Source: Massalongia carnosa (Eukaryota). Taken from it: a DNA stretch of 64,000 bases. The stretch is taken from positions 2,728,001 to 2,792,000 of the forward strand of contig OZ287072.1 in NCBI GenBank assembly GCA_965645245.1, read 5' to 3'. Position 1 is the stretch's first letter, and each line of letters opens with the position of its first letter. The translations under genes and the position numbers were made by a program. Positions 11,520-57,560 of this stretch are shown piece by piece. Under the pieces are notes generated by a model. The model was not told the origin of the DNA. It saw only the letters and a program-made list of their open reading frames with translations, and made no database searches.

Positions 11520-11622
11520 AGATGGTTCTATGTCACGTGAGGCCCCTGAGTCAAAGTAAATTAAGAATCACCCTCTGAAAATTCTTTCATCATTCACTTC
11601 TTCTCACTCGGCCTCATCCATC

Positions 11623-14600
11623 TATCAAGCTGTATGGGCTAATGTGGAATATGGGTGAAAAGGAGTGGTGTGTATTGATCTATGGGAGGTCTAGGCTAGC
11701 TAACTGAGGGATATCTCATAGGGGTTCGTGGGTCATGTGACCCATGGCGGGTCATGTGACCCCTAATCGCCTGACACACCCCCCCAGCTTTGACCAAAGC
11801 TGCCATGACCGAAAAACCTATATTAGGTGAAAATTTCCCATGTTTTACCTTGATTTCTAGTGATTTTGGCCGATTCAATTTGTGGCCGTATTTCCCTTCT
11901 TCTGATTGGCCAATTTCTTCTGATTGTTGACCAGGTCCATGGCATTGACTAGCCCTAATAGCTTGACGAAATGTTGATGCTTTTGAGGAGGTAGGATCTT
12001 GGTTAAACCATCTGCGACAATCTGATTGGTCGGCACATAGTCAACACATAATTCCCCCCTTTGCACAGATTGCCTAAGCCAGCATTGGGCGACGTCTATA
12101 TGCCTCAATTTAGTGTCAGTTTTTCCCATTTCGGAGGTTAAAATGCGAATTGTCTGTAGGTTATCGTTATAGATAACTATATCTTGATCCGGGTTAAATT
12201 GTAGCTTTTCAAATAGATGTATCCACCATATGAGCTCTTTACCCGCATGAAGCATAGACAATAACTCGGCCTCAGTGGTTGACGTGGTCACGGTCAGTTG
12301 CTTCCTAGCGACCCAGTCAATCATCACACCAAATAGCTTGAATGTATAGCCCTCGGAGCTTTTCCTATCTGGGTTATTTGCATAGGATGCATCAGCCGTT
12401 GCCTCAAAAACCTGCTTATTAGCCGGAACCGGTCCATGATTTGCTATAGTAGTGATTTCACCGCCCCCTTTGGCCGAGTACTGGATTCCCAGATATTTCG
12501 TCCCATATAGATAACGTAGGCAATGGTCTGCAGCCCTCATATGAATAGGTCCCGGGTTGGTCAGATATTCAGCTAATTTTGAAGCTGATTTTGCTATATC
12601 TGGCCGAGTCATAATAGCTGGGTAGCATATTGATCCAACTTTCTTCCTATATAGATGCATTCTGGCCGGATCCACCTCCCCCTCATATGGCGCCAGTTCT
12701 TCATTGAATATGGGCGTTAGAGGTGTTTTAGCCTCCGACTTTTCATCTATGTCATACTCCTTGGCTAATTTGTTCATATAGGAGTCCTGAATCAAGTGGA
12801 TCGTCTTTTCTTCTATGTTATGAATGACCCGTACGCCTAGAAAATAGGTTAATGGACCCATATCCCGTATTTCGATCATCTTCATGAAACGTTGCACATA
12901 TTCCTCGACTTCGGCTTCTTTTTCGGGCCGATACGCCATTACTATGTCGTCCACATAGAAGAATAGTATGATTCCCTCCGTATAGAATAGGCATGGTTCG
13001 CCTGGCACCTGTTTTAAACCTAGTTCTATGCATTTGCCTATTAGCATTCGTAGCCATAGAAGGGGTGATTTTCTTTGACCATATAGCGCTTTTTTCACTT
13101 TTAGCACCTTCTTTCTAAGCTTAAAACCATCAGGCAAAAAGCAGTAAATAGGCTCGTCATTGTGAGCGTTTAGAAAGGCGTTAATAGCGTCCAACTGCCT
13201 CGTTTTCAGCCCGAATGCAGCAACTAATGCCATTAATGCCCTAAACACCTTGAAGGCTAATGTGGCTGCATAAACATCTTGAGCATTATATTGCTGTAGG
13301 TCACCTCTAACCACTAGACGTGCTTTGAACTTTGCCAAATAGCCGTCCGAATCAGTCTTATAGGTGAAAACCCATTTGAGGGGCAATATTGGCTGTATAG
13401 CCTCATCTTGATCAACTATTTCCCATGTTTCTTTCTGGAAAAGTGCCTCCCATTCAACGTTAGCTGCTTTCATGAACTCATCTGCATAGGGATGCCTTAG
13501 CAGAGCTCGCCAATGAGATGGGGGGTCGGGCAAATCATCAGTTCGGAGCTGATTAGTCATTCTCGCCGTCCCCGCCGTAAACGCTGTATGAAATTGAGGG
13601 AATTTCGACATTTCTTCTGCTGACCAAGCTCCATTTGCACCGTATCTAGGGTTTGGTTTCCTAGTACGTTTTCCCTCTATAACGTTTGCCTCATTTATCC
13701 TATCGCTCCTTTTTCCTGATGATTGCTCTATTTCCGTCACATTGAGGGGCGTTCGGCCCGTTTGCGGGAGTTGTGGAGGGTCAATTGTTGATGCCCTCAC
13801 CTTTTTGGCCCTTCTTTTATCTATGGAGACATTAGGGCTGATATCTGGTTCAGGTGTTTCTATTGGCGTTTTTAGTTGCATGGGCGTTGATGGGGGAGTT
13901 ATTTTCTCCTGTATTTCGTCCTGACTAGGTGAGTTATCTTCTATGGTCAATTGCTCTATACGCTTATTGACTGATAAGTCTAGCTATTCTTCTTCCTTAC
14001 TATCTATCTCCTGAAATGCGGGGCGAGGTTCAACTACATGAAACTCTATAAAGCTCGCTTTTTCAGTCTCCTTTAGCAATAGCTCCTTATTCGACGTATA
14101 GGCGCTATAAAGTTCATCTTCGTTGAATATGACGTCTCTATAACCGCTGACATCTCCCTTTTCTGGATTCCATATCCTGAAGATATTGGTTGAATCATAG
14201 CCAACCAAATAGCCAACAAATGCCCTAGGTTTCAACTTATTGCTTTTGGGAGGAGCATCGGCCCCTTTTAGCAATGGATACGCCTTGCAAGCAAACACTT
14301 TTAGATGAGCCAGCTCGTATCTGACTGATTGACCCGGATTGGTCAGTTTCTGCAATTTGACCAATGGGGAGTCCCATTCCAGAGCTTTATTAGGGGTTCG
14401 ATTCATCAGATGGGCTGCAGCTAAATAGCACTCCGGATACAGGTCTTCTGGCATTTTTGCATATTCCCTGATGCATCGAGCTTTTTCAGTTAATAGGGCT
14501 CCGAAACGCTCCGAAACGCCATTTTGCTCAGGGGTATTCTTTGCTGACCATGACCATTCTATGCCTTGCTGACTGATCCATGCTTCTAGGGCTTTTCCTA

Positions 14601-16914
14601 TTGATGTTTCTTGCCCCGTGCGAATCGTGGTTACCATTGAATTAATGGAAATGCCAGCTCTATCGCATTGATTGATCAAGCTTTTGAAGATGGGCAATAG
14701 GGTCTTTTCCTTATGATCATTCAATGGATAAACCCATACATATGAGGTAAATTCGTCCCTAAAATGAGCTATACAGCTCGTTCCATCGAACCCCTTATCA
14801 TTGATTGTTAGGTCAAAATGAAGCACCTGATATGGCTTGATGGCACGCCCTGACGGAGCTTTATTGATGACTCTATGCATTTTGGAGACTGCACACGTTT
14901 CGCATTGAATGGTCCTAGGTGCGTTTTCACCCCCTACGCCTTTTGAAACTGTCACCTCATCGATCTTCTTTAGCTGGTCAATCACCTCTGGCCGGCAATG
15001 ACCGAGGCGAAGATGCCATTTCCATGGAGTTGCTTTTGACGTATCGCGTGGCTGCACTGAGTTAGCAAACCCTATATCTATGGATTCAGGGTTATATTCT
15101 ATGATTGAGAGCCCATAGTGCTCCTTTATTTCACATATTTGTTGCCCTGTCTCCTTAACTATAAGGGTATCAGTGAACATATCCCAGAAAAAGCCTCGTT
15201 TTTTCAACTTATTGGCCGAAACCAACGTCACTGATGAATCAGGAATATAAGCTGTTCCTTCGAATAATAGCTTCCTTTTCTGGCCATTCAATAGGCCATT
15301 TACCCTCATTGTGCCATGACCATGGATTTTCATCTCCCCGTCGGGGGTGTCCACCCACATGTCTGACGAAGTTGGGGTTATCTCTCCTATAAACCGTGAT
15401 TTATCATAGGTCAGAGGGTTATCGCATCCAGAGTCAAAGATGACGCTTTTATGCAAGGGGTTATTTGCCCTAGATGTAACGTTCGCAAACGAGAAGGATT
15501 GACTAGGCAATTCAATGTGATTGACCTGATTATGTTGATCATTCTCTGCTTTTTGGGAGCTCTTTTTGACTGACTCCTCAGTTATTCCATCAAGTATGTT
15601 GGTGTCGGTGACCTTCTTAATGGCCATGAAAAACCGAATGTTTGACTGAATTTTCTGACGTAAATCATTGCGTACGGTTTTATCTTCCTTCCATGCAGGG
15701 GGGCGAGCTGATTTGACGATATATGGGCATAGCCTGAACAGGTGTATTTTCCCACATACGCACTTTCTATCCTTGAATCTGGCCTCTTTTGATTGGCCAT
15801 TCCATTGACTTGATTGGCTAGGCCCCGGACCTTTATTTTCGTCTTGCATTTGCCCCTGCAGCGAGGCTGCATTAGCTTGATTTCTAGACGTTGATTGTGC
15901 CTCATTCAGGAATGATTCCACGGCTAAACGATATTCCCTGGTTGTCTCGTAAAATTCAACCGTCGTCTTAGCAGCCCTATGCTGCATTACCCAGTTTTCA
16001 CAGAAATTGGGCGCCCATTTCTTCCCTGATTGGAGAAATTCATTGATGAATATGGTCTCGGAGCCAAATAGGCCCGTTACATTGAGCTCTACAATTTGTC
16101 CCTTGATATTCTCCCAATCAGCTACCCATGCCTCTATTTTACCTTTAATGGGCGGGGTTTTTAGGGCTAGAAATTGCTCATGCAATTGCTCTATGACTTG
16201 GTCATCTGACCGCTTATATCTTGCAGCCAGAATTTTCACTATTTCCCTAACCGATGAAGCCATCTTATTGGGGGGGATGTATGCTCGTGCGGAGCTCTTT
16301 AGTGCATTGTCCACTATTCTGAGTCCTTGGGCGACCTTCTCCACCTGTTTTTCCTTCATCTTATAGGCTGATATCTCCATTTTATAGTCCTCCTTTTGCT
16401 CAGCCGATAAATCGCCGTATTTCTCAGCCGATTTCGTGGCTATTACAACTCCACCTTCTATAATGGGGTAAGCAATTCTACCTGCTGGCTGTGCTTGAAT
16501 AGGGACTTGCTTGATATTGTGAAACTTCCGGATATTCTCCCTCTTCGGGCTCCGGGTTTGAACCATTGGGGTCCACATATTGCCATACCTTCGCTTTCTT
16601 GGATATTCCTTGTAATTCCCTAATCCATAGATGATAATTCTTGGGAGTTAGGGCGATCATCATTGCTTTGTTGGTCTCCTCCATTTTGATCGTTTTGTTG
16701 GATCGTTTTGGGAAGAGGGTTTTATTCAACTAGATCAATGAGTAGGAATTGAAGCTTCTATGCTCACCGGGCTCATAACTATCAAGCTGTATGGGCTAAT
16801 GTGGAATATGGGTGAAAAGGAGTGGTGTGTATTGATCTATGGGAGGTCTAGGCTAGCTAACTGAGGGATATCTCATAGGGGTTCGTGGGTCATGTGACCC
16901 CTAATCGCCTGACA
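11623..16914 (-). mobile_element. Ty1/Copia element 1, full length
   Basis: LTRs 16780-16914 and 11623-11776 (TG..TA on minus); TSD CCATC; PBS GTTATGAGCCCGG; G-rich PPT at 11777-11787. Confidence 0.95.
11875..16684 (-). CDS. Copia gag-PR-IN-RT-RH polyprotein (4-bp frameshift near 16510, in-frame TAG at 13984-13986)
   Basis: CVCGKIH..C knuckle, FDSGC protease, WHLRLGH..CETC, PEQNGVSER, YVDD RT, ADASYA/ADGLTK RNase H. Confidence 0.92.
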
Positions 16915-17042
16915 CCATCTCACTGACTCGTCGTCGACCCCACGTTTTCTCGGTGCCCCTACCTCGCTGTCAGTGCTTGCTGCTTTTCCAATCTCACTGA
17001 CTCGTCGTCGACCTCACGTTGTCTCGGTGCCCCTACCTCCCA

Positions 17043-18055
17043 ATGACGAACACCCGTTCCCAAAGCACCTTGATGGACGACATAGTCCCCGACCCCCAGG
17101 AGATTGTCGGATTGACGCAGGCCCAATCCAATCAAATCTTCGCCCTACAAAAGAAGAAAGCCGAGGCGGAAGCGAAGGCGGCCGAGGCTGAGGCTAGAAT
17201 TGCCGAGTCCAAGGCATTGGTCGCCGAGAAGGAGGTGGAAAAAATGCAGCTAGAAATCGACTGCATGCGCCGAGAATCTGACGCCCGAATAGCGGCCGTC
17301 ATTCCTGCTGGCAAGCCGAGTCGTGTCGTCGGCGATGACGACGAGGACCTAGGTGAGATCCTCTCGAAGTAAGAAGCATAGCACCCCGTTTCGCGGGCCT
17401 ACCACAGGACGAGATCATCAAGATCTTTTCAAATAAATTCAAAGCCATCAACCTCTCCCGCCTCCGACACATGCACGGCATGCAATACGAGTCATACAAG
17501 GATCAAGACCGCATCGGCATCGAAGACGGCGCCTTGAGGTTGAGAAAGGCATCCGGGACCTACAAAGATTTCGGAAAGACAGTTCATGACGTCTGGACCG
17601 AGAGCTTCATCAACTACACCTCGATCATGGTCAGTCTTTTCGGGAAATCGAGTCAACAGCTTCACGCCACCATGTCGGCATTCCACGGAAAAATCCTCAT
17701 GCTGGCCAAGGTGTACGAGTGGCAGGAAGCAGTCCTCCCCCTCGCCATCGAAACCCACACCCACATCATCGCGTCTCAGCCATCCGACGCATCCCAATGG
17801 AAAATACCCGACGAATTCCAAGCTCGATTCTGCACCCCCCTCACAGTCCTACGCCGTCGCCGCTCACGATCCCCGCCGTCCCGACGACCGACCCCGAGAG
17901 GAGACAGGGCCGAGAGGGCCGAGAAGGCAGCGGGGGAAATCTGCGACAAGTACAACAGCGGCACCTGCACCTGGCCGTCGTGCTACCGACAGCACAAATG
18001 CAAATCGTGCGGCGCGTCTGGGCATGGCCAGAAGACATGCCCAACGAAGAAATAG
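17043..18055 (+). CDS. YR element 1 gag-like ORF (frameshift near 17362)
   Basis: Coiled-coil N-terminus, YEWQEAV, C-terminal CDKYN..C..C..HKCKSCG..H..C zinc fingers. Confidence 0.8.
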
Positions 18056-18100
18056 GGGGTTGGTGCAGGAGGCAGTAGAATAGCTTCAATAGCTGAATTC

Positions 18101-19804
18101 ATGACGTCCCATCCCTGCTTACCTGCACCAATCAGACCAAATACAATCCCTTCGTTTCAACTCGTAGACGCATCTCGTCAGCGTTTGAAAGACAGCCCAT
18201 CTCCCCTCGTACCGTCCGCATGGGCAACCCTACTTCAAGAGTATCCGGGCCCCCTCCGAGTCCATCTGCCCATGATCCTTCGTTTCGGAGTACAAATCGG
18301 ATACGAAGGCCCCACAGACATCCTTCGGATCGAACAAAATCTGACATCAGCGAATGAGGACCCGGAAACGATCGAGAATAAGCTTCAAGAGGACCTCAGG
18401 AAGGGCCGAGTCAGACGAATAGCCGCCCCGAGTCAGCCATTTGTGGCCTCCCCCCTCGGCTTGGTCCCGAAACATGACGGAGGATGGCGACGCATTCATC
18501 ATCTGTCTCATCCCAATCAAACATCAGTCAACGACAACATTCCAGAAGAGGCATCCAAATTACAATACGCCAGACTCGACGACATTATTCAATTGATTCT
18601 GTCAGAGGGCAAAGGTGCTGTCATAGTGAAAAGAGACGTCAAAGACGCCTTTCGAAACGTTCCCGTCGCACCTCATCATCAATGGCTTCTGGGTTTCGGA
18701 TGGAATGACGAATTCTACACCGAGACATGCCTTTCGTTCGGACTGTCGACGGCCCCGTTCATCTTCAATCTTTTTGCGGAAGGCTTTCATTGGATTTTGG
18801 AATCCTTTCTACAATGGAGATTAAATCACTATCTAGACGACTTCGTTGCAATTTTCCCATCCGAGACATCGTCAGAACGATTGCACCAAGAAACAAAAGC
18901 CTACAACATTCTCACCGACATTCTCGGCATCCCGAGAAACGACTCAAAAGACGCCGAGGGAACGACAGCGACAGTCTTCGGACTCGAGGTCGACACCATC
19001 AACAGTCTTATTCGTCTGCCAGCGGACAAGCTGGAAAAAGCGAGAATCATCACTACAAAGGCACTAAACGAGACGACAATCAGCCTCGGCGACATGCAGT
19101 CAATAGCGGGCTTCCTAAGCTTCTGCGCACAGGCAGTCAAATTGGGCCGAGTCTTCTTACGATTATTCTGGAATTTTATAGCCTCATTTCCCTCGGGCAG
19201 TCATCGTCGGGTCAAAAGAAGAATTCCCACATGGGTCAGACAGGATCTCATCTGGTGGAACAAACTTTTAGTGGACTTCAACGGTATTGTCTTCTTCGAG
19301 ACGTCAACACGAGACACGATCAAGGTGCATACGCATGCATGCCTCACGGGTCTCGGAGGCTATTTTCAACAAGACAACGAGCTCGTGAATCAAAAAAACG
19401 CATGTAGGGCCCGAGTCCTAGTCCTCAATCAGGAAGAATCACCGAGCATAAACGTCCGAGAAGTCGAGGCTATCCTTCTAATCCTTCAGAAATGGGCGCC
19501 GACATGGCGACATCGACAGATCCTTGTCTTTACCGACAGCAACACAGCATACACAGGATTCACGAATCTAACCCTCAAGGGACCGGCCAACGCGCCTCTA
19601 CGAGAAATACTGTCCATAGCTGCAAAGTGGGACATCGTACTACGTTGTCAATGGATCAGTGGCACTTCCAATGGACTAGCAGATGCCCTGTCACGTTTTG
19701 ATGATGAAAGATTGGCTAACTTTTGCCCTCATTGGCAGAACCCATACAATTCGATGAACCTCCCTCCACCTACCTATCCTCCACACCAGGATCAGCCCTG
19801 GTAA
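18101..19804 (+). CDS. YR element 1 reverse transcriptase/RNase H
   Basis: SPLGLVPK..WRRIHHLS, DVKDAF, LSFGL, YLDDF, FTDS, NGLADALSR. Confidence 0.93.
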   Translation: MTSHPCLPAPIRPNTIPSFQLVDASRQRLKDSPSPLVPSAWATLLQEYPGPLRVHLPMILRFGVQIGYEGPTDILRIEQNLTSANEDPETIENKLQEDLRKGRVRRIAAPSQPFVASPLGLVPKHDGGWRRIHHLSHPNQTSVNDNIPEEASKLQYARLDDIIQLILSEGKGAVIVKRDVKDAFRNVPVAPHHQWLLGFGWNDEFYTETCLSFGLSTAPFIFNLFAEGFHWILESFLQWRLNHYLDDFVAIFPSETSSERLHQETKAYNILTDILGIPRNDSKDAEGTTATVFGLEVDTINSLIRLPADKLEKARIITTKALNETTISLGDMQSIAGFLSFCAQAVKLGRVFLRLFWNFIASFPSGSHRRVKRRIPTWVRQDLIWWNKLLVDFNGIVFFETSTRDTIKVHTHACLTGLGGYFQQDNELVNQKNACRARVLVLNQEESPSINVREVEAILLILQKWAPTWRHRQILVFTDSNTAYTGFTNLTLKGPANAPLREILSIAAKWDIVLRCQWISGTSNGLADALSRFDDERLANFCPHWQNPYNSMNLPPPTYPPHQDQPW

Positions 19805-20549
19805 AACGCCTCGTCTAGCACGGACACTCGGCGGACACGAGAAAAGGGTACGGGACGGCGATCGACTCATACGAGGCATTCTGCGCGACGACGGGACGCA
19901 CGTCGTGGCCTGCAACAACCGAGTCCCTCGAGGAATGGCTAGCCGGTCGACTATACGGGGGCGGCACACCCAAGCAGGGAAAGATAAAACCAGAGACGGC
20001 AGCGAGCTACCTCGCCGGCCTCAGATCATACCATGTAGACCGAGGATACGGCCTCACCCCATTCGAGGGGCCGAGACTTCAATTGATGCTGAAAGGGGGA
20101 AAAAGGATCTTTTCTCAGACAAAAAGAAGACGCCTACCCATTTCAAAAGAATTACTGACAAAAATCACCAGTATTCCCGCTCATTCGGCCGAAGACCTCA
20201 ACATCGACGCGACATTCAAAGTTGCATGGGCAGGGTTCCTCAGACTCGGGGAAATCACCTACACTGTCGCCGATCGTAAGAAGACATCTTTTCAGAGATT
20301 GAAACCTACACGAGGTGACATCTCATTCGCCGAGAACGATCAATACGTGACATTACGTCTCAAAAGAAGCAAAACAGACACAAATCACTCAGGAGTTCAG
20401 ATAGTGCTGGCAGCGACCAATGAGAGCACTTGCCCCGTGACAGCACTACGGCGTCTTTTCAGAAATGATCCTCAGCCATCTACATCCCCGCTTTCGTCTC
20501 GGCACCGCATTCACCAGAGCCTCCGTCATAGCATCCCTGAAAAAGAGAC
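19739..20549 (+). pseudogene. YR element 1 tyrosine recombinase, truncated before the HSxR motif
   Basis: LV*HGHSADTRKGY, SYLAGLRSYHVD, AGFLRLGE, LKRSKTD, CPV; TAG at 19816-19818. Confidence 0.88.
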
Positions 20550-20767
20550 TGTCAGCCAGTTTAGTGGTCAAGCAGTAAGCGATATGTAGCTCGGATACGG
20601 TAATCTATTAACCGAATCCCAACATTCTAGTAACTGAGAGAATGGGTGCAAAATCCTTTCAATGCAAGCAATCAACCTCAATTCCAAGTGTCAATTTCAA
20701 GTGTCTATCTAAAACGTAAATCATTCTCCAATCACCAAGAGCTTAGATCAATAAATCAAGCTCAATA
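20550..20767 (+). mobile_element. Solo LTR (~218 bp) with non-matching flanks
   Basis: TGTCAGCC...AATAAATCAAGCTCAATA sits exactly between truncated YR (flank GAGAC) and truncated MULE-2 (flank AATCA). Confidence 0.6.
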
Positions 20768-23365
20768 AATCATCATTCTCATTCAGAGAGAGTGGAGGAT
20801 CGTGGGTAGGCTGAGTTGCTATATATTGCAGGGCATCGTCGTCAGATACGATGATAGCATCTCCGGAATCTATACCGAATATTAGCCGCGCTACATCGAT
20901 CGATTTGCTGATATTGTGGGTTTTTTATCATCAATCATACCCTTGTCTTCACCGCCTGCCCGCAATTCATCCTCATGCCTTCTTCTCCTCCCTTCTTCAA
21001 TCGAGTCCTTACGTTTAGCACGTCGCTGCTTAGCTTCATCTGCCTCAGCTGCCTCACGGCCAGTGTAAGCCCGCCGGCGACTCCCACTCTTTTTATACAT
21101 GAGGTTGTCCTTCGGTCGGATTTCGTCGGGGAAAGTTGTAGGGATAAGTGGCCTCGCCAGCTCCTTATCCTGCCATTTTTTATTGAAAATAGCAGTGAAT
21201 TTGGTGAATTCACGAGCGTATCCCTCCCTTCTATGCACATTTTCTATTGATTTATGAAAATCAATAGATTGATGTGCGGCCGCATGCAGCAAATCAACAC
21301 CCCCGCGACGAAATCTATCCCCAGTATTATTGTCAACTGCCTTCTCGATCTCCTCCTCCGGCTCAGATTCTTGACTTTGTTGAGCATTCACCCCCTCATC
21401 CGCCTCCTCATCCTGCTCTTCTGTGGTCTTCTGTGAGCTGCTCTCCGAAACATCTCAGCGAAATTTATGGTGAGGTCGAAAACCATGCTCCACGAGACCA
21501 CAAAAGGCGGGCCATCGAAAAACCAGCGGGGATGAATGAGGGAGATAGGTATGGGGATAACATCAATGACGCAACGATACAACCAGCATCTGCACGGAAG
21601 ACCGTATCGTGGAGGCAAATCACAATCATACATACAATCCTCACCGGTTGGTTCGATTAATGCAGTCCCTTCAACTCCAAAAGAAACCTGTTGATTAAAA
21701 TCTTCGGCTAAAAGTTTAGCTGCATCCAACTCTCTAGATATGAGGTCAATAGCATGATGAGTTATTAAACCTATAAGGTCATTGAACGCACTTCTATCTA
21801 TTAGCCGGGGGTTGTTGATTCGTTGATGATTGGTTGATATTTCGTAGTCAACCTGAACCCTTTGCACTGTTTCGCATATTTTCCGCACCGAGTCCTTAAT
21901 AGGTGTATGCCTATTTGGCACATTCTTTACCAACGGATGCAAACCATCCACCCTTTGTGTGCTATGTGCACCTAAATTAGCGAACTTTCTGGTGTATGCG
22001 GAAACAAACTGACACTCCTGACGTTGATAATAGCTAGTAAAATACTCCTGGAAATAGGAGTGAGTTAGCCCTTATTAACGTTTTTTGATGGCTTCATACC
22101 TTTTCTGAAGCATGAAGCTTCAATATCAACGCGTTTCTCTTCTCATCCAGCTGTTCAACGGTAGGAGTTTTGATCCACTCCCATATCAATTCATGCAGTT
22201 CTTTCCGTACTTCTAAAGGATATGAACCCGCCCTGATCAGGCGTTTCTTGATTGCCTCCGCTGCGTGCCACGTGCATAATTGCAACACACAATCAGGGTC
22301 GGTTTCGTGTATTGATTGGGCGACTTGCCATGCAACGGTCATTGCTGCATCCGGGTTTATTTCCTTAGCCCGTTTTTTATGCATCGCTGCAGTCAATCCA
22401 GCGGCGAAGTCTCCGAGGATGACCCTAGGACCAGGACATGTATCATGAAAAAAGAGATCTTTCATACAATCAAATAGAAACGTAAAGCACTCAGCCGATT
22501 CAGAAGTTATATAACAATAGGCCGCGGGGAAAGTCTGATTTGTGTTGGTGATGCCAACCAATACCGATAGAGGTAAGTTCAACTGATTTGTATTGAACGT
22601 AGCATCCGTTTCTATCAAAAATCCACTGACGAATCGTCTAGTCAGTCGGATCTGTTCAGCGTTACAGAAAAAGAAATGTTCAACAACACGTCTTCGGGGA
22701 GTATTGTTTTCAACGAGATATTTCTCCAAAGTCCGTACATGAAACTCTTCTTCTTCTAGAAATCCAAGTGCATAGATCAACTCTTCTTCAGGTGTATGTT
22801 TGCCCTGGGATCGAGCCAGGTTGTAATAGTCCTTCTTCGAAAGGCGCAGGCCAGTCATTCCCAAAACGCGAGATGCTTGACCGTATCTAGTTGATGCATC
22901 ACGGAGACTTTTTGCTTGATCTAGGGCAGTTGCTCGATCGAGGTCTTGGCTACGATGCTCTTTGAAACCGAAGGGGTCTGTAGCCATCTCGTGATTGTGA
23001 TCAGGATTGGTGATGATTAATCTCCACGATTCGTCTTTGTTTTGCTTCAGTCTTAGTCGATATTTGCACTCGTTGAACGAGACCTTCGTGTTTTTTCGTA
23101 CGCGGTCCTTCTCCTCTAGCTTTCTAGTGTTTCTTTCTCTTTTGTGATGACGGGTGCAATCTAGTATAACGAGATGATTCTTCTTATCATTAGTCTCTGT
23201 GACCAATGCAAAGCCTTGAGTAAAGGCATAATTCTGAAGGCGGGTTTTTCCCTCCTCCCAGGAGATAAAGATTTCACTCTCACTCAGAGGAAGACGATAA
23301 GAAGACGGTAAACTCGCTATAGCCCTTTGCAAACGTGCATCCAGGGACGTTGATGTGAGGGCCAT
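20768..23365 (-). pseudogene. MULE transposase (FAR1-like N-terminus, MULE DDE domain, SWIM)
   Basis: ATG 23365; IETDATFNTN, ILGDFAAG, QLCTWH; intron 22048-22099; QRVDG here versus QRVEG in copy 1; frameshift near 21430. Confidence 0.9.
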
Positions 23366-35626: not shown

Positions 35627-38600
35627 TTAACGTGGTTTGTTAGGGTGTCGTCGATAAAAGTCCTTCACCAGTTCTTCTGCATTTTCGAAGCCGTCAGCAT
35701 CATACCACGTCAGGTCTTCGTCAATTCCTTTCCACTTGACCTTGAACTGGATCTTTGGATATCGCTTTCGTGCGTCTAATATGTCGTCCAGTTCCCATTC
35801 GTCGTTACCTTCGACTACTACCGGTGGGGGTGGTTCGTTTATCTGACCAGGAAGGGGGTCGTCTGCAGCTTTTCGGAGCAAGCTGGTGTGGAACACATCG
35901 TGTATTTACATCGAGGGTGGAAGTTCCAGCTGACATGATGATCCTACCAATTTCATGACTCGATAGGGACCTATCATCTTGTGGTCCAGTTTCTTGCAAG
36001 CCCGCTCAGTCTTGATGTTTTTGGTTGACAACCACACCATGTCTCCTACCTCGTAAGATACTTCCGTCCGGTGTCGATCAGCCGCTGTTCTTTGCCTTTC
36101 CTGGGCTCGCTCCATGCTTTGCTTGACGAAGTTCCAGACTTTCTGCATGTCGTCTGTGATGGCCCTAGCTTGGGCGTTGGCCAACCTTTCTCTGGTGGAA
36201 GAAGCGGAAAGCTCTGCTGGATCGAAACTCATCCTCGGTTCATATCCTTTTGTGGCCATGAATGGTGAAAGCCCAGTTGTGGCCGACGGTGCGCTGTTGG
36301 CAGCGAACTCGGCCATCGGGAGAAGGTCCGCCCAGTCATCCTGATTATAGTTGGTGAAACTCCGGAGGTGACGTTCCATTTCTTGGTTCGCTATTTCGCT
36401 TTGTCCGTCTGTTTCGGGATGATAAGCGGTGGACAGTTTCGCCGTGATTTCCAGAATTTTGCACCATGCCTTCCATACCGCTGACACGAACTGGGGGCCC
36501 CGATCGGATAATATGCTGTTCGGGAGTCCGTGATAACGCCAGACGTTGTCGATGAGCAGCTTCGCTGTAGCCTCGGCAATTGTTCCTTCGTCACTACATG
36601 TGCATGGAATGTAGTGTCTTTCCTTGGACATCCGGTCCACAACCATCAGAATGGCGTCGTACTGCTCCTTGCTTTTGGCGAGCCCGGTCACATAGTCGAG
36701 GGTGATGTCTGACCATGGCTTGTCAGGTATGGGCAAGGGTTTCAGTAGCCCGTTGTATTTATCCCTTGGTGCTTTTGCCCGTCTGCAAACGTGACAGCTG
36801 CGAACATAGCGGCAAACTTCTTTGCCCATATTCGGCCAGTAGTAATTTCGAGAGATCGTCTGAATGGTCCTTGCTATTCCGGGGTGCCCAACCGCTATCT
36901 GGTCATGAATTTGCCGTACGACTTCGAGAATTGTTTCCTTGTTGTCCGGGACCCATAAGCGTTTTCGCTTATATAGCAGTCCATCTTTCACCGTACAATT
37001 CTTTGTGTCTGGCAAGGTGTTGTCCGCGGGAGTATCGTCGTCTGTCAGCGCTTTTCTGATCTTCGTACAGAGTTCATCTTCGAGGTTTTCCTGTTTTACC
37101 TTTTCGTCCAAAGGCTGTGGATCGGGATCGGTGGTAGTGTCAGTGTCGTCAAGGGCAGGAGTTTCATCTGATTCCGTTGCTTCTTCGATGGGTTGCGGTT
37201 CTAGTCTTTCCGAGGGCAGCAGCGTTTGGAGCTGATGCTGTTGTCGTTCGTCTTCCTCGTTCTGAGGTTTATCGTTTGGCCTTCGGGTCAGAGCGTCTGC
37301 TTTTTCGTTTTTCTTGCCCGGGCGATAGGTGATGACGAAATTGAACTCCGAGAGGAACTCCGCCCAGCGAGCCTGTCTTCTGGTCAGCTTTTTGGTGGAC
37401 ATGAAATACTCTAGACTTCGGTGATCAGTGAAGATCTTCACTGGTAGATCAGTGCCTTCCAGTTCCGGTTTCCATTGTTCAAAGCAGCGGATGATTGCCA
37501 GCAGTTCCTTGTCGTAGATTTCGTAGTTGCATTCCGCAGGGCTCATATTCTTGGAGAAGAACGCTACCGGGTGAAGTTCTCCGTCATCCCCCATTTGGGA
37601 AAGCACGCCACCATTGACATGGTCAGAAGAGTCGGTTTCCAAGTAACACTGCTTGTCTCGGTCGAAGTGTATCAGAATTGGGGCTTCGCCTATTTGTTTC
37701 CGCAGGGTCCGAAAAGCTTTTTCACATGCTAAGGTCCATTCAAAGATTCGTTCTTTCTTCGTCAGTGCGTTCAGGGGTTTGGCGATTTTCGAGAAGCCTC
37801 TGATGAATCGTCGATAGAAGTTGCAAAAGCCAATGAACGAACGAACCTCACGTAGACAAGTTGGGATTTCCCATTGCTGGATGGCCTTGACTTTAGCTGG
37901 ATCCATGCGAATGCCATCGACGCTAATGATCAGTCCCAAGTACTTGGTTTCCGTCACATGGAATTCGCATTTGTCCACGTCTGCTTGTAGTCCCGCTTCC
38001 CGAAGTTTGATCAGAACGAATCGGACGTGCTCCCGATGATCCTTCAGGTTCTTGCTATAAATCAGGATGTCGTCCAGGTAAGCCGTGCAGAACTTGTCCA
38101 AATAGTCGAATAACACATCGTTGATGTAGTGTTGCCAGGAAGCTGGTCCGCCAGAGAGTCCGAATGGGAGTACCTTATATTTATAGGCACCAAAACGAGA
38201 GTTGAACGTCGTCAGGTCTTCAGACTCTATGGCCATTCTGAGCTTGTGAAATGCTTGCCGAATATCAATCTTCGAAAAGACCTTAGCTTCCCTCAGCTGT
38301 GCCAGAGTTTCTTCTATCAGAGGTATGGGATAGCGGTCTTTTTTTGACAGTTGATTCAGCCTTCGATAATCGACACAGAAACGCAGGCCTCCGTTCGGCT
38401 TTTTGGCCAACAGAATAGGGGAAGCACACGCTGCGTGAATGGCCTCGATGAATCCTTTTCGAAGGTTGTCCTCGAGGTATTTCTTGACGAACTCCAGTTC
38501 TTTCTGTGACATGCTCCGAAGCGGACTATGTCCGTGATCTTTGTCTCCTTCCAGAATAATCCTATGATCATACGTTCGATGAGGTGCCAGAGTGTCAGAT

Positions 38601-39490
38601 GCTGTCTTGGAAAAGACATCTAGGAATTCGTGGTACTCTGAGGGAACTACCGTCTTCGGGTCAGTGGGTGGCTGGTCTTCCTTATTCAATTGGTACTCGA
38701 TGTCTTTCAAAGATATGGCGAATAACTCGACATTCTTTTGTTTGGAGAGCAGTCGGTACGCGGCAGCCCCTATCATCGCCATTTCTATCGGCTCATCTTC
38801 GGGAGTCGGCTTATCCTCGATTCCAGAGTCTGCTGGTCTTCCTGATAGCCCTACGTCAGCTTTGTTAGCTAACAAATCTGACGAACTGAGCTGATCTGGA
38901 CTAGTCCGCTCTGATTCCTTCGTGTCCGTTCTTGCCTCTTCGGGTCGTTTCAGTATTTTCATGATCGTTCTAGCCCCTTCGGACTCCCTCATCATCTTTT
39001 CCTCCTTGGGCAGCTGAGGAGCTCCAGGATGAGAACAATGACCAGGCCAGAAAGTTATCTTGTCTGTGGCCATGTCAATAATCACTCCATGCTTTCTCAT
39101 CCATGGTTTTCCCAATATCATCTTGTGTTGCCCCAGCTGCGTGATTAGAATAGGGGCTATTGTTTCCTTATGATTTTGTACGGTCAGGGTAGGGTAAATG
39201 GCATGCGTAATGTCTTTACCTCGTTTACCGTCGAAACCTTTGACTGCTTTCGGTCTTGTCAGTTTTTGAGGGGAGATCTGAAGCTTTTCACAAACTTCAC
39301 GCGCTGTTGATTCATCAATAAAAGCATGCCCAGTGGCACCGGTGTCCAATAGACCCATCACTTTTATTTCTTCGCTATTGCCCAGTCTACATTGTATGAC
39401 CAGGGGTTCATCGGTGAAAAAATCACCAGGTAAACAGCTCGACGAAATCAACACTGGTTCACCTCCATCTGCGTCTTTGATGGAGGTCAC
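35627..39490 (-). CDS. Gypsy-2 pol (PR-RT-RH-IN-chromodomain); frameshift near 35906 before the chromodomain
   Basis: LLDTGA, YLDD, TDSS, GHPG..CHVC, SDRG, GPY, EWELDDILD..VKWKG. Confidence 0.95.
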
Positions 39491-41990: not shown

Positions 41991-43046
41991 TCAGGACCTA
42001 GTGACTGGATTGTGAGGTTCCGTGGGTAATGTTTGAAGGCGTTTTGAGGCGTTAAGAAGGTAAGTGGGGTGGGTTTGTATGTAAAGCTTGTATGCGTCTG
42101 ACTTCCATCTTCCTAGCATCTGAATCTCGTCTTCGGTGAGTCCTGCCCGTCGCGCTGTTGTTGCCGCACCTCTTCTGAACGAGTGGCCAGAGAAATTTCC
42201 TATATAGCCCAAGTTCCTTAAGGTGGATTTCATCGCTGTTGTAATGTAGTCTCGAGTGAAGGACTGACCGTTTTTAAAGAGTGGTGCGGCCGGAGAACTT
42301 GGGAATCGCCTATATAAATTTGTAAGAGAAGCTAGTGCACAAGCAACATCGTTGGTAGCCGCAATTGTCAGTGTTATGCCTCGGCGAAAGGGATCGGTTT
42401 TGGAGACTGGTAGAGAGAGCTGTAGGTGATCTGCTTCGAACCTAATAGATTTTCTGGTGAGGTGCCATTGATCAAAGCTTGGGTCTAGTACATCTTGCGT
42501 TGTGTAAGTAAATTCTCCGGCTCGTAAGAAGCCTGCAAACGCTAAGCAGTACGCCGCATGTAAATTTGCGCCTTTCTCTTTCGTTTGATCAAGACGACTT
42601 AGCAATTTGATTAAGATCTCTCTAGTAATTGGTAACCTTTCACGTTTCTCGGCTTCACCGTTCTTTCGCTTTATGCCAGTAAGGATGCGATCTAACACCG
42701 GGTGATGAAATACGTCGAGATTACCGAGGCCCATATCTATCTGGCATGATCTTATGCCCGTCAAGTAGCTCTTAATAGTTTTTGGTTGCAGGCGTCGTTC
42801 ACCCAACGCTGCGATCCACGAAGACAGCGTCCGGATGTTGGCTGGAAATGGTGGCGCGTTGAGGTTTACCCTACAGTAAAGAACGTATCCCTTTCTTGCC
42901 GTTGTGTATAAAGATCTTGTCTTAGTGGCCAGGCCCCACCAGAGGTATCGTGCTGCGATTTCGTCTAGAGGTACCTCACTGTACCAAGATGGGGGTGGAT
43001 CGCGTCCTATATTGCTGAGGGTAGAGCCTGAAACTGAGGGATTTTG
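41991..43046 (-). CDS. Ngaro-2 tyrosine recombinase (frame opens without AUG)
   Basis: RYLWWGLA..TRSLY, AGFLRAGE, SKTD, GHSFRRGAA, LGRWKSDAY..Y; catalytic set complete. Confidence 0.93.
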   Translation of the reverse strand, partial: QNPSVSGSTLSNIGRDPPPSWYSEVPLDEIAARYLWWGLATKTRSLYTTARKGYVLYCRVNLNAPPFPANIRTLSSWIAALGERRLQPKTIKSYLTGIRSCQIDMGLGNLDVFHHPVLDRILTGIKRKNGEAEKRERLPITREILIKLLSRLDQTKEKGANLHAAYCLAFAGFLRAGEFTYTTQDVLDPSFDQWHLTRKSIRFEADHLQLSLPVSKTDPFRRGITLTIAATNDVACALASLTNLYRRFPSSPAAPLFKNGQSFTRDYITTAMKSTLRNLGYIGNFSGHSFRRGAATTARRAGLTEDEIQMLGRWKSDAYKLYIQTHPTYLLNASKRLQTLPTEPHNPVTRS

Positions 43047-44623
43047 TCAGCCAGTTTCTTCAAAAGTCCTCTAGACAAGAGATCAGCAATATAATTTTCT
43101 TTGGATGATATCCATCGCGCTTCTATCTGGATATCATGTAATGCAGCTAGCATTGTAATTGCCCGCAGGGCATGCATTGCTTGGCCTCGTATAGAGGTTT
43201 TATTCACTCCTTTCGTGACAGCGTAGCTATCACAATAGAGGATTAAATGACTACCCTTGCATATAGGTAGCCACTTTTTCATAGCTTGAAGAATTGCTGT
43301 CATTTCTTTGACGTTGATATGCTTTGCCCTAAGGCGCGTAGTAAAGCGTGTGCTAAAAGCCTGCCGGGCTGCTTGTATATTATGCAAATTTTGATCCTCG
43401 CTGAGGATAAAGCCGCCCATACCATATGAGCCGGACGCATCTGTCCATATTCTCATAGTATGTCTAGTACGGTTGAGCAGATGTATGCCATTCCATTTAG
43501 GTAGGAAATGATGCCACCATAGAAGATCAGCCCTCATGTCCTTGTTAAGATGGATTAGTTTAGAGGTTACGCTTGCCGTAGCATTGAAAAGACGGCGTAG
43601 AAAGGCTCTTCCTGGTTTTACCACTCTGGCTGCAAAGCATAAGAATCCTAGAAGAGAGTCGAGTTCCTTCCTGGGTATGGCTTTTTTATTCAAAGCTGCC
43701 GATACTAGGGTCTTTGCTTTTAGTAACTTTTCGGAAGGCAAGCGTGCTTCCATGAGCGCGGTATCGATTTCAATGCCGAGGAAATCGCAAGTCGTTCCAG
43801 TTCTGTTCTTTTCGAGCTTGATTTTCATGCCAAGATCTTTACAAATGTTGTGGAAAACTTGATCAAACTTTTCAGCATCTGGTCCGGTGCTGACTATTAT
43901 TAAAAAATCATCCAAGTAATGAATAGCGTCTTTCCAACCACAGTTGTACAATATCCAGTTGATACCCTTCGCGAACAGATCAAAAAGGAACGGCGACGTT
44001 CTCAGCCCAAAGGGTAAGTATTTATCCATCCAAAAGGAATCCTGCCACTTGAAACCTAGTAACCACCAATCGCTTTTTGCTACTGGTATGTGGCGAAAAG
44101 CGTCCGCAAAGTCTCTTTTAATAAGAATACACCCTGGCCCGCGTTGCTCAATCAACCTAATGGCTTCGTCGAAGCTGGTATATTCCAGGGAGCCCCAGTC
44201 TTCCGGTATGTGGTCGTTGACTGAGCTACTCTCCGGATACGATAGATGATGGATTCGCCGCCAACCACCGTTAGCCTTTGGTACAAGGCCTAATGGGGAA
44301 CATATAAAGCAAGAAGGAATGTTGTTGACTTTCTCCAACCGATTACTAGCTATTTGTTCTTCGAGGTCATTGGTAAGAACTTCCGGTGCCTCATTTGCAG
44401 AGGCAAGATTATCGCTAATAATGAGTTGATGTGGTCCTGTATAACCAACTTTGGCACCGTAGGTGATGATATCGATAATTGTTTGTGTGTAAGTGCGATC
44501 CGGGTGATTGGCCAAATGTTTCTCCCAGCCTTCTTTCTTCAATGGGCCCGGTGGGATCTTTGTTAGATTGTCCGTCAAGGTGTATGGAAAGGACTCCGCG
44601 ATGGATAAGAATGGGGCGGTTAG
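43007..44623 (-). CDS. Ngaro-2 RT/RNase H (in frame with gag, no N-terminal AUG)
   Basis: SPLGLVPK, DFADAF, LPFGL, YLDDF, TDAS, KE, CDS, NYIADLLSR. Confidence 0.94.
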   Translation of the reverse strand, partial: LTAPFLSIAESFPYTLTDNLTKIPPGPLKKEGWEKHLANHPDRTYTQTIIDIITYGAKVGYTGPHQLIISDNLASANEAPEVLTNDLEEQIASNRLEKVNNIPSCFICSPLGLVPKANGGWRRIHHLSYPESSSVNDHIPEDWGSLEYTSFDEAIRLIEQRGPGCILIKRDFADAFRHIPVAKSDWWLLGFKWQDSFWMDKYLPFGLRTSPFLFDLFAKGINWILYNCGWKDAIHYLDDFLIIVSTGPDAEKFDQVFHNICKDLGMKIKLEKNRTGTTCDFLGIEIDTALMEARLPSEKLLKAKTLVSAALNKKAIPRKELDSLLGFLCFAARVVKPGRAFLRRLFNATASVTSKLIHLNKDMRADLLWWHHFLPKWNGIHLLNRTRHTMRIWTDASGSYGMGGFILSEDQNLHNIQAARQAFSTRFTTRLRAKHINVKEMTAILQAMKKWLPICKGSHLILYCDSYAVTKGVNKTSIRGQAMHALRAITMLAALHDIQIEARWISSKENYIADLLSRGLLKKLADKIPQFQALPSAI

Positions 44624-45671
44624 TCATTGCCTTGATGGGAGAGGCATCGAATTTGGGTTAGAGGGTTGATTTTTTCCATTTGTACAGTCCATCGCCCGAT
44701 GTTGCTTTCCACATTTCTCACACACATGTTGGAATCTACAATATACGGGACAGTCTTTGCCATAGTTGTATTTCTTACAGATAATCTTTTCGCCTGAGGT
44801 TTTGAAAGCCGTAGAATTATCGTCCGGTTTTGCAAAGTAAGCGGACGGTTTCCGCACAAGATGCCTTTCCAAGGAATGGTCCATTTCTTTCCATCCATCC
44901 GGGTTGTCAATCCCGCGAAAGGCTCGAGATTTGTGGAAATTCAAATGAAAGATGCGAACCGAGTCCCAGGTGTAGAAGGCGTATAATGATAGAAGATGGT
45001 CCTGATAAGCCATGAAGGCTCTCATCAGGTTTATCTGGAGACCGGGGTGTGCAAAGTGTAGTAGTATCATCCAATATACCCCGAGACATCGTATCAAATG
45101 AACTATCCCTTTGATATCTTTTAAGGAGCCATCTTCTTCTCTCGTGGCGATTTCCAGACCTTCTCCGAGTTTGACGTATCTAGAGTTGGTTTGAACTCCG
45201 TCGATTTCGGTACATAGCTTCTGTATACAATGAGTTTGGTCGATGCGGTGGAAATGATGTCGGAAATAATAGGGAAGGCTGTTGAGCTGAGGCTACTGGC
45301 CCAGGGACCACGTCTCGGGCACGTGCTTGTTGGGTTTCGATATCCCGCCTAAGACTTACTCTTTCTCTTTCCTCGGCTTCCCTGCGGGACATTTCGCGTT
45401 GTGCTCTAAGTTCAATAATGTCATCAGGGGTGCGAGAACGGGTTTCCGGTATAACAGGCCCTTGTGAGGAGGAATTAAACGCTGAAGATGGAAGAGGAGA
45501 AGGTTGAGGATGGCTTTGAAGGGTTGCCGTGCTGTCTTGTGAGTCGGGTACTTCGACGTCTGGGTTGGAGTTGGCTAGATTTGCCCTAGCTCTAGTTCTA
45601 GTACGGGCTTGAGTGCTGCCTTGTGTGCGGGAGGTAGGCTTGGTGATTCTGTTGGAGATGCGGGTGGCCAT
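44624..45671 (-). CDS. Ngaro-2 gag-like ORF (frame change near 45230-45290)
   Basis: ATG 45671; YTWDSV..FH; CKKYN..C..C..HVCEKCG..H..C. Confidence 0.8.
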
Positions 45672-46801
45672 TTTTGGAGGAGAGGGATTTGAATAGAGTA
45701 AATTTAAGTGTAGTGGTTGTATAAATTTGAATTGGGTGAAAAGAAAACGTTGCAAACAGTGCTATCAAAATGCTATGCTTTTTGATTGTCTTGAGATGTG
45801 AGATGATGAGGGATACCGTCTGGGACCTCCTCTTTATATATCTTCTTCCTATTCTCCTTGTCCTACTCTACCATCCCAGTATGCCCCATCAACGCGGCCC
45901 ATAGCAAGGCATACACAAATCCGAAACCTAACTGTCGTCCGAAGGATCGATGCGGTGCTAAGATCTCTATGCCGTGCTGAGACATCCTTATGGTGCTGAG
46001 ACATCTATGCCGTCCGAGAGATCCATGCGGTGCCGAAATCAAAGCGGGAGCTGTCTCGATTAACGACGCACTAGCTCTCAGCATAGCCGAACTAGAAAAT
46101 TGGAGATTACTAACAGATCTTGATGATTAAATATTCGACTTATTGGTTACTTTAGTCTTTATTCGTCAACCTTTAGGCAGTTGCCTTTATCTATTATACG
46201 TCTTGTCGTTATATTAGTCAGTGCAACCTGCATCTCAACAAATAATCGTCACTCTGTCTTTACTTCTCGTCTCGATAAGCTTTATTATTCTCTTTACCTT
46301 GACCTTTTAACAATTCAGTCATATATTATCCACTTTATCCTATCTTTACGTCCTCTTTATCCGTCGTAGAGTAATATTGGTTGTTCAGCTGCTCTCTTTA
46401 CATGTCGCATCGTCATACAATGACTTCGTTGCAGCTTTTGTATCTTGCGTATAATATATCTATATAATGCGCAACCGTCCTTGGATTTCTTATCGAAGAT
46501 AATGTTAAGCACGTTCAGTTCTCGAAGATCAACAGTATTCTACATTATTACGTGGTAATGATTCTCATTATTCTTTGAATTGATTATTATCTATTACTTG
46601 ATGACGAGAAAACCTGCTTAGAACATAATGCCTATAGAGCCCAAATGTTAGAAGACCAACTACTACTGCGACGACATATTAAGCTCATCTGTTCTGGAAC
46701 AACAGTCACTCTTAGACGGAAGCCCTTCCTTATCCTACTAAAAAGCGCATGCGTTTAGGAAACCAATTCTCTTTAATGCTAACATAATACAATAGGGTAC
46801 G

Positions 46802-46971: not shown

Positions 46972-47682
46972 TTACGTTATAATCCCAAACGTTAAGTTAT
47001 AATCCCAAACAAAAACTAAACACCAAATCCATCGAGTCTAAAGGATTCAAGGGTACATAAATGTCTAGATATATGGGACCTGCGATGGGGGGGCGCTCTC
47101 GGTCGCAATAAAAATAGACTCGGTTGGTTATATTAACCTGACAAATTGAGTCCACTATTTGATTTGTTCATCGGGATATTGATTACGCATGCCACAGCAT
47201 CCTTCGTGTTGACGGTAGTCAAAGATAATATGGATGATCGTATCGATAGTGGACAAGAGTTGGTTTGGAAGATAGTCAAAAGATGGTATAGACGGTTGTC
47301 TGGATGGTAGTCAAAAGATATCAAGATGTATAAGCTAGTGTGGATTATGGGTGAAAAGGAGTGGTGTTTATTGATCTATAGGAGGTCTAGGCTAGCTAAC
47401 TGATGGATATCTCATAGGGATTCGTGGGTCATGTGACCCCTAATCGCCTGACACACCCCCCCAGCTTTGACCAAAGCTGCCATGACCGAAAAACCTATAA
47501 TAGTTAAAAATTTCCATGTTTTACCTTGATTTCTAGTGATTTTGGCCGATTCAATTTGTGGCCGTATTTCCCTTCTTCTGATTGGCTAATTTCTTCTGAT
47601 TATTGACCAGGTCCATGGCATTGACTAGCTCTAATAGCTTGACGAAATGTTGATGCTTTTGAGGAGGTAGGATCTTGGTTAA

Positions 47683-56400: not shown

Positions 56401-57560
56401 GGCCATATCTACATCTGAAGGCCGTCTTCCATTCGTCCCCGGCGGCGATTCGGAGGGTGTTGTATGCGTCCCTCAAATCCAACTTGGTGTAGATAGCCGA
56501 CCCGCTGACGATGTCGAACAGCCCCTGGATCAGGGGTAGAGGGTACTTATTCTTAATCGTAGCAGCATTTAGGGCCCGATAATCGACACAGAGACGTAGA
56601 CTACCATCTTTCTTCTTTGTGAATAGGATGGGCGCGCCTAGTCGTGAGGTGCTATGGGTAATATACCCTTTTGCCAGGTTGTCGTCGATGTAGTCTTTTA
56701 GGGTTTCTAGTTCGGTGAGGGAGAGGTTATACATGGCCCGGGTCGGGGGTGGTTCGCCTTCCAGATTGATTTTATGGTCGTGGGGCCCTCGTTCTGGTAG
56801 CACTGAAGCTTTTTCATTGGAGCAGACGTCACTGTAGGATTGATACAGAGGCAGAAGTTTATTGCTAGACGTAGAGATGGCACCAACTATTGACTCCAAC
56901 TCCGGGCTCCCACCGAGCACTTCCCGAATGTCTATTAGGAATGCGTCGACGCCCTCGCATTCGCAGATGTCAAAGATCTCCTGCTCACTCACCATTGCCA
57001 CTACTGGGAGATTGATACTTCGATGAGGGGTTTCCTCATCGCCTACAGTGACCCCGGGACGTTCCCCTGGCAGGTCATCTCGTACTTCACCCTCGATGAG
57101 GTGGCTTTCATGGATTATCCTCCTTTCGCGCCAGCCGATGGATGGATTGGCATGACCCAACCAGGGCAAGCCCAGGATCATGTCCACCCCATACATGTCT
57201 GACGCGACGAATGCCTGCTCGGCCACTCGCTCAAGACCATTGTCATCAACAACCCCGACGCGCAGGGCATGATCAAAATAAGTCTGGAAGGGGGTTCCAT
57301 CGAGAGTTTTCAACCCAGATGGTGGAGGGGAGCCGGGAGGATCTCGAACACCTACCTCATTTAGCCAGGTTTGAGCGATAAGGTTCCAAGTTGCTCCGCA
57401 GTCGATCATTGCTCGGACACGATGCTGACTGTTGTCGTAATATAGGAAAACCGTTGAGAAGAGGTGGCGGCATGGGGATTTCCTCATTTGCCGGGCCAAT
57501 ACGACGGAGGCAACGTCTATTGGCCCCGACCTTTTCCCGGCCGGCGGGACGATCCCCGCG
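53459..57560 (-). CDS. Gypsy-3 pol (PR-RT-RH-IN-chromodomain), open
   Basis: MIDCGA, YLDD, TDAS, GHFG..CTRC, TDRG, GPY, EQYEVEEVL..YLVKWKGY; start is approximate (frameshift from gag). Confidence 0.95.

Follow-up and report, generated by a model that had tools for sequence, protein, structure and literature searches.

The retrotransposons closest to the element described here are those of the Ngaro type (order DIRS). In the part of the fungal survey drawn on here (Muszewska et al., 2013; PMC3783388), Ngaro elements carry gag, reverse transcriptase (RT) with RNase H, and a tyrosine recombinase (YR) in that order, without a methyltransferase domain, and their YR open reading frame (ORF) is frame-shifted and overlaps the pol ORF. 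DIRS-1 of Dictyostelium is also a YR retrotransposon with overlapping ORFs, and in the cited part of its description (PMC7192593) a spliced marker intron was carried into new copies, which shows that RNA of such elements can undergo reverse transcription after splicing; no natural splice for the DIRS-1 recombinase is reported there. The out-of-frame, pol-overlapping and often start-less YR ORF of DIRS and Ngaro elements has been described, its expression not explained. The window analysed here, a 64,000-nt stretch of DNA from Massalongia carnosa (contig OZ287072.1, positions 2,728,001 to 2,792,000), contains an element of comparable organization at ~16915-20551 on the plus strand. This element, named E1, is a dead copy of a Ngaro-like YR retrotransposon of a fungus. 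Comparison with related elements, including a second YR element on the minus strand of the same window (E2), suggests that intact members of the family make their recombinase as a fusion with the N-terminal part of Gag (GagN-YR), by partial splicing that joins 17352 to 19739. The probability of this reading is put at about 0.75.

E1 was found to follow the Ngaro order, with gag, an in-frame stop, RT plus RNase H, and then YR in the -1 frame. A methyltransferase domain is not present in this layout, and since YR directly follows the end of RNase H (19738-19804) there is no space for a further domain. DIRS-1 differs from E1 in having inverted terminal repeats, an internal complementary region and a methyltransferase domain (PMC7192593, part cited). 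Ngaro elements are defined by split direct repeats (A1 at the 5′ end; B1, A2, and B2 at the 3′ end). Near the ends of E1 a tandem pair of 49-nt repeats was found on the 5′ side, and split direct repeats of the Ngaro type are unreadable as the element is cut on both sides. On the 5′ side the cut is probable, because in other copies the shared sequence runs on upstream of 16915 (loose ends in runs X1, X5, and X6, described below).

A preliminary description of this stretch, made from its letters, had proposed a donor AG|GTGAGA in gag, a branch site and acceptor where the YR frame opens, and a YR frame lacking AUG until after its conserved N-terminal domain. All of these are present in the sequence (Table 1). 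Residue G17352 is the first codon base in the gag frame counted from ATG 17043, while the YR frame opens at 19720 (codons from 19720, 19723), placing 19739-19740 at codon bases 2-3. Both sites are therefore phase 1 and the removal of 17353-19738 leaves an in-frame Glu codon, so that the claimed joining of the two frames by a 2,386-nt intron is borne out by the codon positions. The SAM-like N-terminal domain of the recombinase lies at residues 34-104 (Pfam match below threshold), upstream of the first ATG of the YR frame. Only one combination of the form CTRAY-N6-30-YAG occurs within 19400-20100, namely the GCTAAC/CAG pair. Two GTRAG motifs occur within 17043-19714, at 17353 (phase 1) and at 17369 (phase 0), and the latter was ruled out as a donor, being in phase 0 and corresponding to Val codons in L005 and L007 that are poor donors. 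These two motifs compare with ~5 expected from length alone in the 2.67 kb of sense strand, both being located at the proposed donor; the difference is not significant, and the scarcity may reflect selection against cryptic donors.

Table 1. Coordinates in the window of the features of E1, and of E2 where named.
Feature	Position	Strand	Remarks
5′ untranslated part kept in E1	16915..17042	+	two 49-nt direct repeats, 16917-16965 and 16991-17039
Proposed exon 1, coding part	17043..17352	+	ATG 17043; Gag N-terminal 103 codons plus first base of Gly codon
Putative 5′ splice donor GTGAGA, phase 1	17353..17358	+	AG|GTGAGA at 17351-17352|17353-17358
Proposed intron	17353..19738	+	2,386 nt (2,387 nt with the extra C); rest of gag, gag stop, RT plus RNase H
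Private 1-nt deletion (C) splitting gag in E1	17359..17360	+	from contigs of other copies and P0258
TAG stop ending gag	18053..18055	+	in intact copies RT/RNase H follows in the same frame
RT plus RNase H reading frame	18056..19804	+	Pfam RVT_1 47.2 bits; RT_RNaseH 20.5 bits (below its cut-off)
Donor of the 19403^19739 joint, GTAGGG	19404..19409	+	T|GTAGGG; not conserved, Phe TTY in 7/7 relatives; joined codon is a stop
Putative branch-site motif GCTAAC	19715..19720	+	its TAA is the stop opening the YR frame; branch A 19 nt from 3′ splice site, no AG between
Putative 3′ splice acceptor CAG	19736..19738	+	last conserved RT/RNase H codon; YR-frame conservation starts there
Proposed exon 2, YR frame while E1 still matches the family	19739..20551	+	SAM-like N-terminal domain and first part of catalytic domain
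First in-frame ATG of YR frame	20086..20088	+	residue 122 of the intact family protein P0002
E2, second, distant YR retrotransposon	~41994-45761	-	RT 38% and YR 32% identical to E1
E2 putative branch and acceptor	43028..43051	-	GCTGAC 43051-43046, CAG 43030-43028; same layout and phase as E1

The predicted expression programme is as follows. Full-length RNA of intact family members would give Gag and, by readthrough of the gag stop, Gag-RT-RNase H. Part of this RNA would be spliced from 17352|17353 to 19738|19739 with a branch in GCTAAC, which would eliminate RT/RNase H entirely along with the remainder of gag. The spliced mRNA would start at the gag AUG and encode the 103 Gag N-terminal residues (an Ala/Glu/Lys-rich helical stretch followed by an acidic tail), the junction Glu and the whole recombinase, ~485 aa in total. 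Splicing would be the sole route to a product with both an AUG and the N-terminal domain of the recombinase. The 17352^19739 junction would be expected to form in family RNA, in a part of the transcripts, and the Gag N-terminal part would have the role of targeting the recombinase to Gag assemblies or the cDNA. The motifs, their phase, the conservation of the motifs and the existence of natural GagN-YR fusion ORFs are directly established, and are considered in turn below. The preliminary description had assigned the three products Gag, Gag-RT and GagN-YR to one transcript of this locus. Comparative evidence favours this for the family; for the E1 copy itself, which the description overlooked to be dead, it does not hold, and because E1 is mutated in gag, RNase H and YR the programme can belong to the family only.

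The acceptor side was examined by scanning metagenome contigs with an alignment of the recombinase (A1), which gave 10 loci whose YR is 40–52% identical to P0002, the intact family protein. Relative to RT/RNase H, YR is in the -1 frame in all nine loci holding both regions as well as in E1 and E2 (11/11). In 10 of the 11 elements the YR frame opens at a TAA or TGA inside CT[A/G]A[C/T], L008 being degraded. A codon-by-codon comparison was made with 10 sequences, as L006 is identical to L005 and was dropped. The layout GCT[A/G]A[C/T], 15 nt, CAG is kept in all 10 and encodes the conserved terminal peptide of the RT frame. The Ala codon inside the branch motif is GCT in 10/10, while two other conserved Ala columns nearby use three and four different Ala codons; the Gln codon at the acceptor is likewise CAG in 10/10. 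In the RT frame the invariant T of GCT is a synonymous position, and the YR frame does not include it, so that a constraint on the nucleotides, such as a branch site, accounts for it and a coding one does not. Beyond the CAG the tail of the RT frame is unconserved and stops 28-91 nt on, whereas conservation of the YR frame begins at that same CAG. The distance from the branch A to the 3′ splice site is 19 nt, with no intervening AG, in the four elements checked (4/4). An extra AG occurs 6 nt before the conserved CAG in L009 and in E2 (43036-43034); splicing there would stay in frame as well, the offset being divisible by three. The YR of E2 is an intact 351-aa frame which opens at 43046 and has no early ATG. 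Its RT/RNase H frame is open from 44623 to 43010, and its gag is broken by frameshifts.

On the donor side, a phase-1 G|GT was found at the same Gly codon (GGT), ending the acidic tail of Gag and followed by a short conserved peptide, in all four elements that carry gag. The donor is GTGAGA in E1 and L005, GTGAGT in L003 and GTACGC in L007, and the homologous conceptual introns are 2,386 nt (E1), 2,381 nt (L003), 2,369 nt (L005), and 2,411 nt (L007), all four joins being in frame. This column was aligned by eye on the Gly and the peptide following it, as automatic alignment failed in the low-complexity N-terminal part of Gag. In the 762 gag-RT columns shared by the four elements in the automatic alignment, no other conserved phase-1 GT was found; GT is conserved in four of these columns, three times in phase 0 and once in phase 2. 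Conservation of donor, branch, acceptor, and phase among homologs, proposed as a check in the preliminary description, is thus seen in each of the four relatives in which both regions are readable (E1, L003, L005, and L007). A GTAAGT at 45359-45354 was considered as a donor for E2 and found to be unusable, as it is in phase 0 in the ATG frame, the E2 gag is frameshifted and the coiled coil of P0203 (a fusion protein described below) extends past that point.

The same elements bear on the expression of RT. A single in-frame stop separates gag and RT in five of five elements (TAG at 18053-18055 in E1, TAG at 853 in L003, TGA at 838 in L005, TAG at 1374 in L007, and 44626-44624 in E2). Gammaretroviruses use readthrough of a single in-frame stop codon between gag and pol. 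The arrangement suggests that Gag-RT is produced by stop-codon readthrough here too, in agreement with what had been proposed for E1.

Relatives of the recombinase were screened for natural fusions, with 100 in one set and 150 matches listed in another. Among the relatives listed, GagN-YR fusions were identified in four clades, represented by P0189, P0098, P0203/P0257, and P0003, and two of them (P0189 and P0098) are joined exactly at the acceptor. P0189 (ENA; contig of 2,222 nt) begins with a Gag-like part that is helical and acidic, and its YR match starts from G62, which corresponds to the last G of TGGCAG in L002, L004, L005, and L006. P0098 (NCBI MCJ1269665.1, Lobaria immixta) matches the Gag N-terminal part of E1 over residues 4-56 (40% identity, E 3e-5) and has G77 on the same acceptor G in L005 and L006. 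P0203/P0257 (513 aa; contigs of 3,850 and 28,229 nt) matches the Gag N-terminal part of E2 over residues 32-117 (37% identity), with YR from the residue matching 43001; it is a full-length open fusion in which the catalytic motifs are kept except for the box II His. In P0003 (Logan; contig of 11,084 nt) the Gag part ends at the same donor Gly and YR is joined 36 codons further in. In E1 a second phase-1 AG is present at 19845-19847, 36 codons into the YR frame, which matches the P0003 junction and may be an alternative acceptor. These fusion ORFs would represent either cDNA or RT-less genomic copies that arose from spliced RNA.

Contigs of four public runs (X1, X3, X5, and X6; the kind of run is not on record) were compared with E1 over window 16800-20900. 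A contig of X3 links 19403 directly to 19739 at a depth of 1,962, leaving out 335 nt whose ends are GT..AG; its shorter side is 29 letters and the joint has no ambiguity. Among the 15 X3 joints listed of 32, it is the deepest and the sole one with GT..AG ends, and its 3′ end is the predicted acceptor. As an RT-YR fusion it was ruled out, since the joined codon is a stop and the donor GT is absent in 7/7 relatives. It is read here as cryptic use of a real acceptor and not as a productive splice.

Several observations weigh against the splicing of GagN to YR. The 19403^19739 joint takes another donor, ends in a stop and makes no fusion, and the 17352^19739 junction itself is not among the 15 X3 joints listed, none of the six runs being on record as RNA. 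An intron of 2.4 kb is far above the usual length of fungal introns. The fusion ORFs, known here as protein records, may come from cDNA or from RT-less genomic copies, and in the gene model P0098 the intron may be an ab initio prediction. Searching for longer proteins with the Gag N-terminal part of E1 gave no GagN-YR ORF of this family, the two proteins obtained both being plain Gag; a search for longer YR fusions gave one protein, which is YR alone. Four of the 11 elements (L003, L004, L005, and L006; three distinct sequences) carry ATG as the second YR codon, four codons upstream of the CAG. The preliminary description had named an AUG at the YR start in homologs lacking the splice motifs as evidence against its proposal. 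An AUG is present there in these four elements, and the branch-CAG layout is kept in 10/10. Finally, RNase H and YR are in one ORF in some more distant relatives (P0079, P0167, P0238, and P0169); P0190 (1,252 aa) and P0227 (1,222 aa) of Panaeolus have YR at their C-terminal end. The splice would then be the solution of those YR groups in which the frame is shifted.

The ATG in four elements fits an independent start of YR at the opening of its frame, at an AUG or near-cognate NUG four codons before the CAG, either on genomic RNA (by internal entry or reinitiation) or on a subgenomic transcript, in which case the splice-like motifs would merely reflect the conserved C-terminal peptide of RNase H. 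An NTG is always present at this place, because of a Cys codon in the RT frame, and prokaryote-style gene callers begin many homologues there. However, the codon is not ATG in seven of the 11 elements (GTG in three, TTG in two, with no such codon in E2 and L008 degraded beyond reading), the invariant T of GCT is not accounted for by coding, and the natural fusions swap exactly the residues upstream of the CAG for the Gag N-terminal part. Such a start is considered unlikely. The -1 relation of the frames in 11/11 elements, their overlap of 28-91 nt in 10/11 and the relatives with RNase H and YR in one ORF would also be compatible with YR being the tail of a Gag-RT-RNase H-YR polyprotein, made by -1 ribosomal frameshifting or other recoding in the RT/YR overlap (19720-19804). 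The part of the Ngaro survey drawn on here describes the YR ORF solely as frameshifted or overlapping (PMC3783388). Against such recoding, a canonical slippery heptamer (X XXY YYZ) was found in only one of nine RT/YR overlaps, that of L002, the sole conserved stretch of the overlap is the branch-CAG motif, and the RT-frame tail past the CAG varies in length and is unconserved; this is regarded as the least probable of the explanations weighed here.

It may also be asked whether the splice sites are real but incidental, the acceptor being used in aberrant or regulatory splicing as in 19403^19739, and the GagN-YR ORFs being dead by-products or annotation artefacts. The one joint seen is non-productive, P0098 is modelled on a degraded copy and its YR part is interrupted by an internal gap, and P0003 is without the first ~40 YR residues, all of which would fit this explanation. 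It is nevertheless very unlikely, as the phases of donor and acceptor match in 4/4 elements, P0203/P0257 is open over its full 513 aa with nearly all catalytic motifs, and no other route to a complete recombinase is conserved. Production of the recombinase as a spliced GagN-YR fusion therefore remains the preferred reading.

The state of the E1 copy became apparent from the four runs. In E1, gag stops at 17372 because one C is missing after 17359, and the frame of its continuation (17357-18055) is shifted by one base. This C is found at full depth in X1, X5, and X6, at 72,673 of 169,212 depth in X3, and also in P0258, an unbroken Gag of 327 aa (39 cluster members). In the RNase H of E1, His takes the place of the Asp (19334 C); a G at 19334 restores the Asp in all four runs. 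The YR frame of E1 is blocked by a TAG at 19816-19818, which is TGG (19817 A>G) in all four runs, and breaks down near 20490-20589. This TAG is private to E1, as is the loss of a TT after 20491, the TT being present in all depth of X5 and X6, in 264 of 578 in X1 and in 107,010 of 241,014 in X3. After 20551 E1 diverges from the family while other copies run on as recombinase, and because of this cut E1 is without the HxxR box and the catalytic Tyr. The splice motifs themselves agree between copies, as the X1 contig over the donor (17226-17416) has no other letters and that over branch and acceptor (19317-19888) has three, corresponding to the changes at 19334, 19791, and 19817.

Copies differ in the region of the 49-nt repeats (16917-17039), the X3 form skipping 72 nt (16985 to 17058) and the X6 copies having 17 nt extra after 17037. 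In X3, 4,027 contigs were found over 16800-20900 with a summed depth of ~250,000 and many deletion joints (e.g., 17321 to 17413 and 20228 to 20283), from which it appears that the family is highly amplified or enriched in this run.

The class of the recombinase was assessed on P0002, whose YR frame is unbroken over 387 aa (54 cluster members, from megabase contigs). In alignment A1 it has the box I Arg in GFLR, the Lys in RSKTD, a GHSFRKG motif, and W and Y near its end. Its relatives in A1 likewise have the box I Arg, Lys, HxxR, W and Y. Matches to Pfam Phage_integrase are 17.5 bits for P0002 and 20.4 bits for the E2 YR, both below the cut-off of 27.1, and those to Phage_int_SAM_1 are 15-17 bits, below the cut-off of 22.3. 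In a profile search of PDB, box II falls on residues 289-321 of Cre/Tre, in a weak match (E 0.045-0.29).

E1 is nested within a repeat-rich region. Its flanks consist of other repeats that are 93–98% identical to copies elsewhere in the window (16001-16900 with 60320-61214, and 20767-21924 with 847-2005, inverted; also 11603-11777 and 47319-47454). Two more RT-like stretches, at 55577-56773 and at 37259-38659 (minus strand), are ~22% identical to the E1 RT and probably belong to other retroelement families.

A conserved GagN-YR splice would explain how the displaced YR ORF of DIRS and Ngaro elements is expressed. If true, it would mean that elements of a class lacking env also have a retrovirus-like subgenomic mRNA; it would suggest a way of bringing the recombinase to Gag particles, and predict RT-less processed copies as fossils of the splice. 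It would also matter for annotation, as gene finders and transposable element pipelines would lose ~120 residues, or the Gag part, wherever they begin the YR ORF at its first ATG or at a TTG. A wider version can be put forward as a speculation, more doubtful than the proposal for this family: an entire clade of these fungal elements might make its recombinase only as a GagN fusion from a spliced subgenomic mRNA, with the entire module of the C-terminal part of gag, RT and RNase H as the intron, and the spliced RNA might sometimes be reverse transcribed and integrated. RT-less GagN-YR elements such as P0203/P0257 (28-kb contig) would be the result, providing a natural route to a Crypton-like, recombinase-only element.

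No splice making a DIRS or Ngaro recombinase, and no Gag-recombinase fusion, was found in the literature searched, including the parts of PMC3783388, PMC7192593, PMC8547959, and PMC13465315 drawn on here, and an earlier remark by Poulter and Butler (2015) or Goodwin and Poulter is possible. The proposal is a new expression strategy within a known class of elements. Cryptons, the fungal DNA transposons with YR only, combine a YR that is extended at its N terminus with the absence of RT (PMC13465315, part cited), a layout shared by P0203/P0257 and P0003. Unlike Cryptons, these fusion ORFs have an N-terminal part derived from Gag and a YR match of the Ngaro-like kind.

Splicing of retrotransposon RNA in the copia group (Drosophila copia, barley BARE) sets the ratio of Gag to Pol. 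As proposed for the E1 family, partial splicing there alters the protein output; however, it removes pol for more Gag and creates no new fusion with an integrating enzyme. Spliced subgenomic mRNAs are also used for retrovirus env, foamy-virus pol and ORF IV of rice tungro bacilliform virus, where removal of a long intron links a short leader ORF to it in frame. With these retroviruses and pararetroviruses the proposed programme would share a single transcript that is used unspliced, as genome and gag-pol mRNA, and spliced, for a downstream gene without a usable start of its own, with a very long intron covering the polymerase. It would differ from them in that the downstream gene encodes the integrating enzyme, which would be fused to ~100 residues of Gag, and in that the host is a fungus and the element is non-viral.

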